NCBI GenBank assembly: GCA_951406725.2
Contig: OX597817.1
Location: forward strand, 88,350,001 to 88,414,000
Direction: 5' to 3'
Source of the DNA: Octopus vulgaris
Taxonomy: Eukaryota
DNA length: 64,000 nucleotides
In this document: one piece after another, positions 1,035-58,490 of the stretch
How the letters are laid out: every line of letters begins with the position of its first letter
Position numbering within the stretch: position 1 is the first letter of the stretch
Translations under genes and position numbers: made by a program
Notes under the pieces: model-generated
Database searches by the model: none
Told to the model about the DNA's origin: nothing
Seen by the model: the letters and a program-made list of their open reading frames with translations, nothing else

Positions 1035-2040
1035 ATATCATGAACAGTATGGAATCTTGTACATCCACAAAATTTATTTTAAAGTTATATACAGCATATC
1101 AAAATGACCTACATGTGTTTCTGCTGCAACAACTACACACTGTTGCAAATGCAACCTTGCATTATTGTCAGTGCAGCTTCATCAGGGTCTGTCCATTTGG
1201 TCATCCTCGAAGCGAACTGATATGAAGTAAATTTCTGTTAGTTAGTGTTCTGTGAGAGGTGGGGTGTTGTTATTTACAGGTATGTGCTGCTGACCTCAGA
1301 CACACACCAGTCGCTGTCCAAAGTTAGAGATTAATATAAAATAGGTCAAGGTCTAGATTAGTGTTTTTGTAAAGTTCTTTGTTCATTTTAATGGTTGCAT
1401 GCTTTTGATTTTCAATGTAGTGTTTGTATTGAAGAGTTCATGTTTGTTCATATTCATTTTTTTAGTTGGGCAGCTCTGATTTATGTTACACATTGGGTAA
1501 GGTATTTTTTTTTTATTAAGGATAGTTATTAAATTTTTTTAATGTTTAGGTTATGCTATTTTATTTGTTACATGAAGCTCAATTGTTGCTGGAGTGTTGG
1601 CTATCTTGAATGATCCCTGTATGTCTTAAAAGGTCCTACTGTGTTTGTGTAAACTTCTTAGAGTTTGTTTGTTTCTTGTTGTAATTAACATATGTTTTGT
1701 TGTAAATATCTGGTTAAGTTCCTCTATGCATAGGTTTCATCTATTTCCCCCTACTTGATAAGGCTTAACAATCCCAATTAGTTCCCAATCAATGGAATAG
1801 CTGTTATTTTTGTCTCTAATTGACCAAATTAGTTTGCTTAGGCTTGTGTTATTTACTTTTTTTCCTATTTCTAAAAGAATTTAAACAATTGGTTAAACAA
1901 TTGGTTAGGAGAACTGGCTCCTATAAAAGTATTCCCTCCCAGGTAACTTGGCATCTATGGACCAGGTTGTTAGTTTGACATTCTGAGTCCAATAGGCATA
2001 CTTTACCTCTAGCACAGTTGCATAAAACTGTATGCCTATT
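1035..2040 (-). mobile_element. Penelope-like element 3' fragment (decayed GIY-YIG C-terminus plus ribozyme-bearing terminal repeat)
   Basis: Reverse-complement homologue of 11310-12050. Decayed coding trace (..SIDWELIGIVKPYQVGGNR..). Hammerhead motif at 1106-1189. Left end abuts a (TA/TG)n tract. Confidence 0.7.
1106..1189 (-). ncRNA. Type I minimal hammerhead ribozyme motif (PLE-associated)
   Basis: Minus strand reads GACC-CUGAUGA-A-GCUGCA..(long loop)..UGCAGC-A-GAAAC-ACAU-GUA-GGUC. Stem I is GACC/GGUC, stem II is 6 bp, both core boxes are intact and there is a GUA cleavage triplet. Confidence 0.75.
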
Positions 2041-2394
2041 TCTATTATTTATGAAGTACAGCAAATTGCCACATCTCTTGGTCCTTTATCACTTCCTCAG
2101 CTTTCTTCTCAATAGTGGGTAGCATAGTATGGTGTGTAGAAGAGATGACGGGGAAAACAGTTAGGAGATTAAATAGTGTAGGTATATAGAATAGGCAACA
2201 GGTTGAAGGGAGGGCTGCATGCACAAGCAGTCTGTTTGTACAAGAAAACAAAATATTTAAACAATGAGATAATCACAGAGAAAGAAGTCAATTTTATTTC
2301 CTTCTCGGAATTTTTAAACTAAATCTATAAATGTGTGTGTGTGTGTGTGTGTGTGTGTGTATGTGCGTGTGCATGCGTGTGTATGTGTAGGTGC

Positions 2395-2790
2395 AGGCAT
2401 AGCCATGTGATAAAAAGTTTGCTTCCCAGCCACTTGGCTTTGGGTTCAGTCCTCTGTGTGGTATGTTGGGCAAGTAACTTCTATAATCCTTGATGGACCA
2501 AAGCCTTGTGAGTGGATTTGGTAGATGAAAACTGAAAGTTTCCTCTATGGTTGACTGATAATAATAAAAAAAAGTATGTGTGTGTAATGTGTATGTATAT
2601 GTGCACATGTATGTGTATGTATACATATGTTTATATGTGTTGGAAAGTGAGAATGTTACTGTCTCTTTGTCTTGACATCACATGATAATTATAAAACAAG
2701 TATCACCATCTTACAAGCAGTGTACTTCCATGAAAACATGTCTAGCCATGGAGAAATATTATCTTACTTGGAACAGATAAGGATTAGTGA
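2395..2790 (+). mobile_element. tRNA-derived SINE (degenerate copy of the window's dominant family)
   Basis: Head gcaggcatagccatgtgataaaaagtttgcttccc..gggttcagtcc and body aagccttgtgagtggatttggtagatgaaaactgaaag, shared with many copies in the window. Confidence 0.7.
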
Positions 2791-2813
2791 TATACACAAA
2801 GTGACAGTTTTAA

Positions 2814-3028
2814 CCCTTTTGTTACTGTATTTCTGTTGAGATGCTCTGTGTTTCTTTCAATTACTTTAAATATAATTAAGAATTTAGTAAAATAACTTAG
2901 TTATCATTAAGCTAAGAAACATGAATTGTGACTAAGGTTTGGTGGAAGATTTTAATTCAAAACTTATGAAAACAAAACATTTGTACTCAGAGCCAGAGCT
3001 GGTTTCAGCCGGGTTGGTAACGAAAGGG
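2814..3028. mobile_element. TTAA-specific (piggyBac-like) MITE
   Basis: TTAA|cccttttgttac ... gtaacgaaaggg|TTAA. The same family occurs in opposite orientation at 61600-61953. Confidence 0.8.
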
Positions 3029-3399
3029 TTAAGAAAGTTAGACTGATTTGTTCAGATTGGGCCACACACACATGCTTGACTTGTAATAAAACATTAAATC
3101 TCTCATATAAGCTTTTGCTGTTTAGTATGTCATTGTGGCTAATGGTGGAGCTTCGATCCTTCAATGCTTTTTGGGAAGGGACTGGTATACTACATGATTC
3201 ATAAAACATCAGTCTTTAACATTTATAGAGTAGAGGACTCCACTGACAATTCTCTAATTGAGTCCTGCACTTCCTGATGCTGGCCCCGTATACACACAAA
3301 CATATATACATAGCTAAATGCATATATGCAAACACATACTTATATATATATATACTCACAAACCCACATACACATGTATGTAAACACACATTCATTTTA

Positions 3400-56500: not shown

Positions 56501-56698
56501 GTAAATAACAGTTTTTGAATATTTTTTCATTTTATTTTTGGTGTATTTAAAAAATATCATTTACAACAAATATAATTGTTTGGATTTTATGTGCACACTG
56601 TTGCAGCTTGTGCTTATAATAGTCAAAGCCTATTCAACATCATTCTAGGGTCTGAAGAATATATTTATTGAATATATTTATTTTTATTACTTTATTAG

Positions 56699-56943
56699 CC
56701 TCCAGTTAAAGAGGAAGCTAAGCCAGAGGTTGCTAGCACCAGTGCTGCAGAGGGAAAAGAGGAAAAGGATGATGGCAACAAATCTCAACCAATAAATGAT
56801 GACAGTCCAGCTAAAGAAGACCAAACAAATAAGCAAGAAGAAGAGAAAATGCCACAACAAAACCTAGAAGCAAACAGAAACAGATCTGTTGATGCAAGTC
56901 ACTTACAGATGTACCAAGAACAAGTTCAGAACCCATTTTGCAA
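56699..56943 (+). CDS. Uncharacterised host gene, coding exon 2: PPVKEEAKPEVASTSAAEGKEEK..QVQNPFC
   Basis: Acceptor tttttattactttattag|; 245 nt open; donor AA|gtatgt (phase 2). Confidence 0.8.
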
Positions 56944-57435
56944 GTATGTATCATTCAGATTAATCAATATTTTATGAATTACATTGGGATTCCTTAATAT
57001 AATACCTATTATTATTACTAGGAATCCCAATTATTAAGGACAAGAGATGCATTTTTTTTATTACATTTCAAAAAACTTGCTCAGAAACTATGAAAATGTT
57101 TTATGCAATAAAATGTGTGTATGTGTAGTGTATGTGTGTGTGCATGCATGTGTGTGTGAATGTTTGTGCATGTGCATGTGTATGCATGTAGCTAATCCTC
57201 CAAGAAAACCGGTAAAAAATGGCAAAGATGGCAAGCAAGAGTTGGTGCTGGAAAGCATGCTTGTTGTTGCATCTTTGAGATTTTCTTCAAATTTTCTCTT
57301 TTTTTTTTATTTCTAAAATGTTGGTTCTGATGGTAATAGAGCTATGCCAGTTGGTATGGTTCTGGGCTTTAGTTTTCCACAATTTTGTCTCAATTTTAAG
57401 ATCTTGCCTTCAGTAAAAAAAAAAAAAAGAACATA

Positions 57436-58304
57436 CAGGGTGCAATGGGTAAATTTTTCCATTTTATATTTTCAATTTTTGTGCATGCACAGTGTTTGCT
57501 TTTGATTTTGTCGACTACACAGTATGATAGGGTCAGATGGGCACTGTCTGTGAGAAAAACAGCACCATGATACAATTCGATCTGCCAGAAATTTGGAAAT
57601 GACATACTGTACTGCTTGGCATTCACACTGGAAGCTCCATTACAAACATTTCAAAGTATTTAGGTATCAATCAGAGGACAGTGCAATCTGAGGAAATGTA
57701 CTGAGAATGATAAAAATCAAACATCCAGTCAACATCATGGTGTTTAGAGTGATCACTACTGATGACAATGTTATGCCTCCATTGATCTTTCCACTCAGCC
57801 TCAGACTCAATACAGAATCCTACATCAAGTGCCTGGAGGAGGTAGTGCTGCCCTGGGTCAAGAAGGTGCCTGCTGGAAGACTTCATGTCTGGCAACAGGA
57901 CTCTGCACCATGCCACACAAGTAGGAGAACTCAGTCATGGCTATCAGACAATTTCTGCAACCACATAACCCCTAACATCTGGCTACCCTAACTCCCCAGA
58001 CTATAACCCCACAGTTGAGTGAGAGACCAACAAAACTCCTTGTAACACCAAAGATTAACTGAAGGCAAGGATTACAGCAGCATTCACCAACTTAAACAAG
58101 GGGACCTCCAAGAAGAGTTGCAAGAGATTCTGAAGTCGTCTGGAGGCCATGGTTGAAACCAATGACAATTTTATTGAATTAATTTACTCTTCAATATTTC
58201 AAGACATATTTATGTAATTTTGGTAAATATATCTGTTAAAATGAGATGTCAGTGTTATTTTCATTTTCGCATAATTTAGGCGACAATTTATTCACCACAC
58301 CCTG
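57436..58304 (+). mobile_element. DD37D/maT-like transposon, internally deleted, intronic
   Basis: TA|cagggtgc ... acaccctg|TA. KHPVNIMVFRVITTDDNVMPP..WQQDSAPCHTSRRTQSWL..PNIWLP. Confidence 0.85.
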
Positions 58305-58321
58305 TAAATATATATATATGA

Positions 58322-58490
58322 TAGATCGTTAGCCACTGCACACATTTTTTTCTCTCCTTGTTTTTTCTGTAGAAGAGTGTAGGCTCGAAACGTAAAAGAC
58401 TTTTTCTATTCCTGAGCATTATACTAATACATCTGTTTGTTTTGTATACCACCTGTCTTCGTCTTTTGTTGTTTCCATAAACTCTCCCTA
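58322..58490 (+). mobile_element. Solo PLE-type tail with hammerhead-like motif (58360-58400)
   Basis: guuuuuu-CUGUAGAA-GAGU-GUAG-GCUC-GAAAC-GUA-aaagac. Inserted in (TA)n. Confidence 0.5.

Follow-up and report, generated by a model that had tools for sequence, protein, structure and literature searches.

A 64,000-nt stretch of the Octopus vulgaris genome (contig OX597817.1, positions 88,350,001 to 88,414,000 of assembly GCA_951406725.2; hereafter the window, numbered from its first base) contains hammerhead ribozyme motifs that most probably lie in the 3' ends of many families of Penelope-like elements (PLEs), six of the ten families listed beforehand being 5'-truncated coding elements. The ribozymes are likely to cleave slowly and only as dimers that join through stem III, probably with the aid of a protein. 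An earlier note on this DNA had listed hammerhead motifs at 12 sites, and at the level of sequence all 12 were confirmed as real: they belong to ten dispersed repeat families, for each of which at least 40 matches at other genomic places were scored, and the family consensus is a minimal hammerhead of type I. The overall kind is already known (PMC4209133); less ordinary are the core changes that are fixed across whole families.

Families of hammerhead motifs and their copies in the window

The window has a GC content of about 35% and many TA-type tracts, and about half of it matches other loci retrieved from the 2.8-Gb genome. The genome was searched with each motif site and the resulting alignments were sorted into 11 families, A to K. 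Each search yielded 40-60 matches out of 500-3279 first-look candidates, and since only 40 candidates were scored and 25-30 taken for alignment, the alignments are biased toward window-like copies. The sites at 1106 and 11900 fall into one family (A), and those at 51190 and 51238 form an inverted pair of family H. The coordinates given earlier mostly marked the exact outer base of stem I, and needed correction at 16627, where the true 5' core lies at 16711 on the minus strand, and at 51887, where the GAAA lies at 52003. The latter site had been taken for a false positive on the basis of a short alignment without GAAA, which was rejected when a longer alignment placed the GAAA 105 nt downstream. 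Five descriptor matches (24354, 51817, 58763, 26298 and 56271) were dropped because they have no paired core positions 3 and 8 (3:8). The hammerhead motifs of the window are as follows:

1106-1189 (-): family A hammerhead, canonical CUGAUGA core intact, stem II region of 57 nt, cleavage predicted after 1110
6980-7024 (-): family K hammerhead with canonical core, stem III of the family a palindrome of 10 nt, G at position 17 in the window copy
9500-9541 (-): family B hammerhead relic, probable ancestral core CCGAYGA (U4C), 10-nt palindrome
11900-11983 (+): another copy of family A, with an intact core and a broken stem I (2/4)
14619-14657 (+): family C hammerhead, UUGAAAA core (U3:A8), extra U before the core, 2-bp stem II, ACCGGU palindrome; intact
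15391-15440 (-): family D hammerhead, core GUGAACA (G3:C8) in the family, stem I of 7 bp, palindrome AAUAUU; G3A and G12A in the window copy
15945-16023 (+): family E hammerhead with canonical core, stem I of 3 bp and long stem II; GAAA one A short in the window copy
16627-16717 (-): family F hammerhead, canonical core CUGAGGA (16711), stem I of 6 bp, long stem II whose U.U base is weak
21340-21424 (+): family G hammerhead, CCGAAGA core (U4C), ACAUAUGU palindrome, predicted cut after 21419; intact
51184-51230 (-): family H relic, left arm of the inverted pair, probable CCGACGA core (U4C), three core lesions
51233-51272 (+): family H relic forming the right arm of the pair, with G8A
51886-52019 (+): family I relic with canonical core and a stem II region of 105 nt, GAAA at 52003; G12A and U16.1C in the window copy
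58363-58398 (+): family J hammerhead, CUGUNGA core (A6U), 4-bp stems I and II, ACGU; intact

All 11 consensuses contain the core segment of positions 3-9, GAAA, stem III, U16.1-H17 and stem I in the order of a type I hammerhead, with a canonical core in A, E, F, I and K and a variant core in B, C, D, G, H and J. Stem I comprises 3-8 bp in every consensus, and the base of stem II passes in 10 of 11, family F being weak through U.U mismatches; in families A and I, the place between A9 and G12 that a G10.1-C11.1 pair usually occupies has an A facing a G. Stem III is palindromic over 4-10 nt in 11/11 consensuses, as the earlier note had proposed, with an unpaired centre in H. Its description of a "tiny" stem fits stem III, whereas the stem II region is 55-105 nt long in five families.

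Most genomic copies are dead relics. Half of the 12 listed window copies keep the core of their family and the other half bear core lesions, mostly from CpG decay; just three (14619, 21345 and 58367) have core, stem I and palindrome all intact, and the copy at 1106 nearly so (stem I 4/4, stem III one substitution away from a palindrome). Family B is old and CpG-decayed, its window copy having G5A and a stem I of 2/5, and family E is young, with copies about 98% identical. The association with TA tracts noticed earlier holds across the genome, in that a TA-type tract follows within 500 nt downstream in 74-100% of the copies of the ten listed families, as compared with 321 of 1000 random windows. 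Between 14057 and 16930, four unrelated PLE tails (C, D, E and F) lie within 2.9 kb at shared TA tracts, which suggests repeated insertion into the same microsatellites.

Chance patterns and controls

Taken singly, the window copies are weak evidence, because the loosest descriptor returns only 7 matches in the window versus 5.0 in shuffles. This figure is what would be expected of chance patterns in AT-rich, repeat-rich DNA under a loose descriptor, and the Rfam check proposed in the earlier note likewise came out empty, with no hammerhead among the 150 of 192 window matches listed and none at the gathering score in 5 loci. The probability that chance accounts for the motifs is nevertheless negligible, since that reading is refuted by consensus tests and by controls on unselected DNA. 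The automatic type I descriptor was tuned after the families were known and applied to consensuses that were CpG-restored by rule, so that the test is non-blind; it matches 10 of the 11 families, family F failing solely at its weak stem II base, and 0-6 of 1000 shuffles of each consensus. The consensuses thus fit the motif better than the window copies do, and in six families the motif occupies the same location behind PLE open reading frames (ORFs). Under the strict type I descriptor, the window alone gives two sites, 1185(-) and 7020(-), versus 0.0 in 20 local shuffles.

The unselected sample consisted of 40 pieces of 10 kb at round genome coordinates (400 kb). When 3:8 pairing was left free, cores with a paired 3:8, U4 and A6 were found 20 times versus 0.5 per shuffle (7 of the 20 belong to one tandem locus). 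Cores with C4 occurred twice versus 0.0 and those with U6 once versus 0.7 in shuffles, while cores without a 3:8 pair stayed at chance level (9 versus 7.5). When instead the palindrome was left free, 17 of 19 canonical-core matches were palindromic, with 0.2 matches in each shuffle. The excess is thereby limited to 3:8-paired cores, almost all of them palindromic. In 1.71 Mb of retrieved sequence, which is enriched and partly overlapping, 240 matches form 64 clusters, including 20 canonical, 6 C4, 3 U3:A8 and 1 U6, and its shuffles give 32 matches scattered across many core types. Families A-K contribute 19 copies to the 400-kb sample, which by rough extrapolation corresponds to ~10^5 hammerhead-derived motifs genome-wide.

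Coding parents of the hammerhead-bearing tails

The earlier note had placed the motifs on PLE tails. This holds for six of the ten listed families (A, C, D, E, G and J), which, by their linkage to ORFs with GIY-YIG or reverse transcriptase (RT) sequence, are 5'-truncated tails of protein-coding PLEs; for the other four (9500, 16627, 51190/51238 and 51887) no ORF was found in the sampled copies. In the window, the motifs at 14619 and 21345 are each immediately preceded by an ORF fragment:

14057-14515 (+): family C PLE ORF, C-terminal GIY-YIG fragment (CCHH-type)
19934-21139 (+): family G PLE ORF, 3' 401 codons (RT thumb and GIY-YIG), open, ~99% identical to the full-length copy at locus L366

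The family A element at 1106 extends to about 2050 and contains a GIY-YIG remnant, and the family G element of the window terminates at a TA tract near 21620. Elsewhere in the genome, same-strand PLE protein matches were found upstream of the motif in 30/38 copies of C, 24/31 of G, 7/34 of E and 8/33 of A. In family D an ORF is present in 7 copies within the shared stretch, ~1 kb upstream in long copies (Pfam GIY-YIG, E 4.2e-5), and a PLE ORF lies upstream of J in 12 of 27 loci chosen for a long 5' side. The RT part of family C matches RVT_1 in L369 and L380; among 15 window ORFs Pfam returned a single LINE-type RT match and nothing for the two PLE fragments. Upstream lengths shared between copies are graded in all families, as expected of 5' truncation, whereas the 3' ends are fixed and lie at TA tracts. 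In the six families the motif lies in the pseudo-long terminal repeat (pLTR) of a PLE. Lone ORF matches found upstream in L137 (B), L263/L375 (F), L198 (I) and a single D copy (L317/L376) were not counted, as they lie outside the shared stretch or belong to another family.

Both pLTRs are present in L366 (G000:C1:75.01 Mb, 653-6107), an intact pLTR-ORF-pLTR copy of family G with an open ORF of 775 aa, which is flanked by two cores 2863 bp apart and accompanied by an inverted stub. The same locus holds a 783-bp partial copy that is 99.5% identical to the 3' end, and all three cores carry C4. The element is under 3 kb and its dispersed copies (including L368) are 99-100% identical, and it was probably active recently. 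Its 775-aa protein (P0086), which has 85 homologues, almost all of them unnamed, contains RT motifs with the invariant RT aspartates and a GIY-YIG-like C-terminus, and aligns with an RT-bearing PLE ORF over ~450 residues. As in endonuclease-positive PLEs, a single ORF with RT and C-terminal GIY-YIG is found in L366, with fragments of such an ORF in A, C, D, E and J, and partial tandems, inverted 5'-truncated partners and an optional 3' tail occur as well. An inverted partner is located upstream in 46/64 copies of H, 18/39 of I and 8/35 of B.

By its motifs, not by a tree, family G appears Hydra-like. It shares with the Hydra PLE clade, as described in PMC8557442, a length under 3 kb, DKT, RW (without K), (TA)n targets, the lack of CCHH, and a C-terminal E/N with CxxC and CxH around it; unlike that clade, it has no CxCX5C linker, P0086 being free of cysteines there. 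The hammerheads reported for the Hydra clade are canonical, in contrast to the U4C core of family G (PMC8557442). The nucleases of families E and A are related to that of family G. The partner proteins of families C, D and J have cysteine linkers and CCHH-type nucleases, in which they resemble Neptune/Nematis (PMC8557442).

At L078-L084 (G000:C29:19.7-20.3 Mb), seven near-identical segments carry J, H and F tails beside a C2H2 zinc-finger-like coding sequence; this segmental duplication array inflates the copy counts of J, H and F.

Retrozyme-like elements

The earlier note had regarded the elements in general as non-autonomous and retrozyme-like. An explanation of that kind, in which dedicated non-autonomous units amplify through their own cleaved circular RNAs, is quite improbable for the families as a whole, since six of the ten continue into sequence coding for PLE protein, with 5' truncation points that are graded, and G has an intact copy. 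Same-strand upstream tails were found in only 5/58 copies of J, 1/64 of H, 1/35 of B and 0/39 of I. A reading of J as a fixed-length non-autonomous unit was rejected, as longer copies extend into a PLE ORF. Non-LTR retrozymes are tandem non-coding units of 150-450 bp with one hammerhead each (PMC7229834), which the coding parents of A, C, D, E, G and J are not, and no tandem unit was seen for B, H and I; none of the ten listed families consists of such units.

The best candidates for such units are two cases outside the original list. Family K is a circularly permuted non-coding unit of ~407 nt, with tail sequence upstream of the motif in 8/32 copies and a TA link in just 5/32; its consensus has a second, decayed hammerhead-like hairpin that ends in GAAA ~60 nt downstream of the first. 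The window copy (416 bp, 6758-7173(-)), with its motif at 7020(-), looks like the best retrozyme candidate in the window and was missing from the earlier list. The other case, judged by its organisation a typical non-LTR retrozyme, is a tandem array of 359-bp units (L031; G000:C1:20.00 Mb, 3082-4541 and minus strand), in which five units face one way and two the opposite way, and every unit has a canonical hammerhead with a 6-bp stem I and a 4-bp stem II. Both correspond in outline to the 150-450 bp hammerhead repeats described for retrozymes (PMC7229834; 10.64898/2026.07.22.740005). One J locus (L075) is a four-unit tandem, and no ORF was found for B, F, H and I, which would also be compatible with non-autonomous units.

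Core variants fixed in whole families

The unusual cores announced in the earlier note proved to be properties of families. U4C is the consensus state in three window families (B, G and H), of which G is young and has an intact ORF: C4 is present in 15 of 19 distinct G sequences, and the rows with U4 are older relatives. In B and H the C4 is deduced from a mixture of CG, TG and CA, with an intact core in 1/33 and 5/36 copies, respectively. The core of family C (U3:A8 and one extra U, next to a stem II of 2 bp) is intact in 34/36 copies, and family D has G3 in 28/31 and C8 in 30/31. In family J, U6 is present in 52/53 copies and position 7 shows all four bases; this position is also free to vary in K and F. 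A sister family of J (L061:646-684, L066, L039, L044, L068, L070) has the same stem II but keeps A6, with C4 or U4, and has one stem I pair swapped. With six copies in the 400-kb sample it is probably more abundant than J, and no copy was found in the window. The J copy of the window is a truncated tail of ~190 bp (~58303-58490) that ends at a TA tract.

Contigs from four sequencing runs cover 21150-21640, and in three of the runs both C and T occur at 21346, also in contigs from other organisms. Run X1 has very deep short contigs over 21286-21438 only, the family G hammerhead, which carry U4 (T), though contigs cannot show RNA ends or level. Should this be an RNA run, the contigs may stem from a small RNA of high abundance that belongs to a related family, which is a lead only.

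With the minimal hammerheads of PLEs described in PMC4209133, the octopus motifs have in common the type I topology, the short stem I, the palindromic stem III, a base often inserted between A9 and stem II, the U3-A8 variant, and the occurrence of many divergent families per genome, mostly as single truncated copies and inverted pairs. They differ in the 55-105 nt of stem II in five families and in stem III palindromes of up to 10 nt. According to the text of that study, family-fixed U4C, A6U and G3:C8 are absent among its 56 motifs (Fig. S3), and none of these is from a cephalopod. Among natural variants, U4C (in a viroid), A6C and insertions beside C3 have been described (PMC3088659), and CYGANGA has been used as a descriptor, both C and U being seen (PMC13481778); U3-A8, a U10.1.U11.1 mismatch and a 2-bp stem II are likewise on record (PMC3088659, PMC13481778). 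Those are rare single cases (PMC3088659), whereas in octopus such changes are fixed in high-copy families, and the base at position 6 is U. No natural A6U or G3:C8 core and no paper on octopus hammerheads were found in the literature searched, which was mostly judged from listings and whose uncovered supplements and alignments may hold such cores. The repeat annotation of O. vulgaris comprises 31 recently active Penelope-like families, and its available text makes no mention of ribozymes (PMC13282606).

Slow, conditional cleavage or loss of catalysis

By analogy with the biochemistry of PLEs (PMC11167929), the endonuclease would nick AT-rich target DNA, and reverse transcription would start within the RNA, downstream of the hammerhead. 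Family G would have two start points, at +52 and +204 nt relative to the cut site, where 8 and 20 of its 36 copies end. Reverse transcription would usually halt early and leave hammerhead-bearing stubs. Because copies span the cut site, the template would have been uncut or re-ligated there, although the copies counted all span it through having been selected for this. Uncut or re-ligated templates would favour slow, conditional ribozymes, and with these, U4C, A6U, G3:C8 and U3:A8 with an insertion could be tolerated in successful families. Poseidon of Anolis is similar in its AT-rich targets, two 3' ends downstream of the hammerhead and copies that span the cut site (PMC11167929). The 3' ends of family G are ~150 nt apart and its ATG lies 255 nt past the cut site, as compared with a "tail" of 30-40 bp and an ATG inside the ribozyme in Poseidon, in which G3:C8, the natural state of family D, was engineered as a partial rescue (PMC11167929).

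PLE hammerheads have been reported to be of low activity and to cleave only as dimers (PMC4209133), and cleavage to be protein-assisted and dispensable for insertion in vitro (PMC11167929). In predicted monomer folds stem III forms in none of the 11 families, and co-folding of two copies gives the exact double hammerhead in 3/8 families (A, G and K). Slow, conditional cleavage would be the best reading of the PLE hammerheads, with loss of catalysis in the variant families as its main rival. According to the latter, motifs with variant cores, above all A6U, would no longer be catalytic and would be kept for dimerisation or protein binding, or hitch-hike. We regard this as rather unlikely, though it has several observations on its side: in vitro, activity is low with A6C or with insertions beside C3 and is reduced by U4C (PMC3088659); PLE insertion in vitro is unaffected by core mutations that inactivate the ribozyme, and no RNA-seq reads ended at the cut site (PMC11167929). 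Moreover, J (U6 in 52/53) and G (U4C, intact ORF, copies 99-100% identical) have spread regardless. Against it, G8, G12, the 3:8 pair and a non-G at position 17 are conserved in J subfamilies of 77-98% identity, in which position 7 can be any base, and the 3:8 changes in C and D are compensatory.

Slow cleavage by PLE-borne ribozymes has to be weighed against several findings. For five of the eight families co-folded, the minimum is not the exact double hammerhead (B, C, D and J; H in part). The lower variability of non-CpG core positions relative to the 3' flank, seen in 7/8 families tested (J 9/530 versus 97/1165), speaks for the reading, yet it can be inflated by alignment and selection of matches and is absent in family F (21/484 versus 35/1142). 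An alignment of J and its sister family with 18 hand-picked rows shows 94.9% pairing, with two-sided change at one pair only, and its rows were chosen by a pattern that demands stem II. On the protein side, the 775-aa protein of family G itself has no match in Pfam or in the PDB (searched with the family profile), and of 55 homologues 4 match GIY-YIG and 2 RVT_1, weakly. Families B, F, H and I have no ORF of their own in 35-64 sampled copies, with a flank of at most 1.5-3.5 kb.

Host gene and other features of the window

The family J copy lies on the sense strand in intron 2 of a host gene with four exons:

56408-62790 (+): host gene, 234 aa, exons 56408-56500, 56699-56943, 59788-59863 and 62500-62790, GT-AG introns, open frame

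The last exon is 100% identical to a predicted O. vulgaris protein of 234 aa, and a search with it among longer proteins gave this O. vulgaris entry as the sole match. The earlier proposal that some of the motifs sit in introns of host genes is thereby borne out at 58360, the one site at which it was examined. A LINE-type fragment with an RVT_1 match is located at 18628-19569 (-), and the stretches 53817-55267 (-) and 49521-49886 (+) we take to be LINE-type by resemblance of their motifs. A tandem satellite of 62-66 bp within a dispersed repeat occurs at four places (17391-17590, 50132-50769, 30255-30406 and 45262-45405).

Implications for octopus Penelope-like elements

The ~10^5 octopus motifs implied by the extrapolation are ones that Rfam and strict CUGANGA descriptors miss. 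PLE hammerheads are near-universal in these elements, and yet cleavage is dispensable for insertion in vitro (PMC11167929). The octopus families offer matched natural pairs for testing their role in vivo, namely J (U6) versus its sister (A6) with the same stem II, and the recently amplified G (C4) versus its U4 relatives. As a speculation that is more likely wrong than right, octopus PLEs could hold a natural series of weakened cores (U4C in several families that are not related, A6U in an abundant one, G3:C8, and U3:A8 together with an inserted base and a stem II of 2 bp) that were selected to stay uncut until the protein of the element licenses cleavage; A6U and G3:C8 would then be cores not seen before in nature, and a hammerhead with A6U may be a module for dimerisation that is no longer catalytic.

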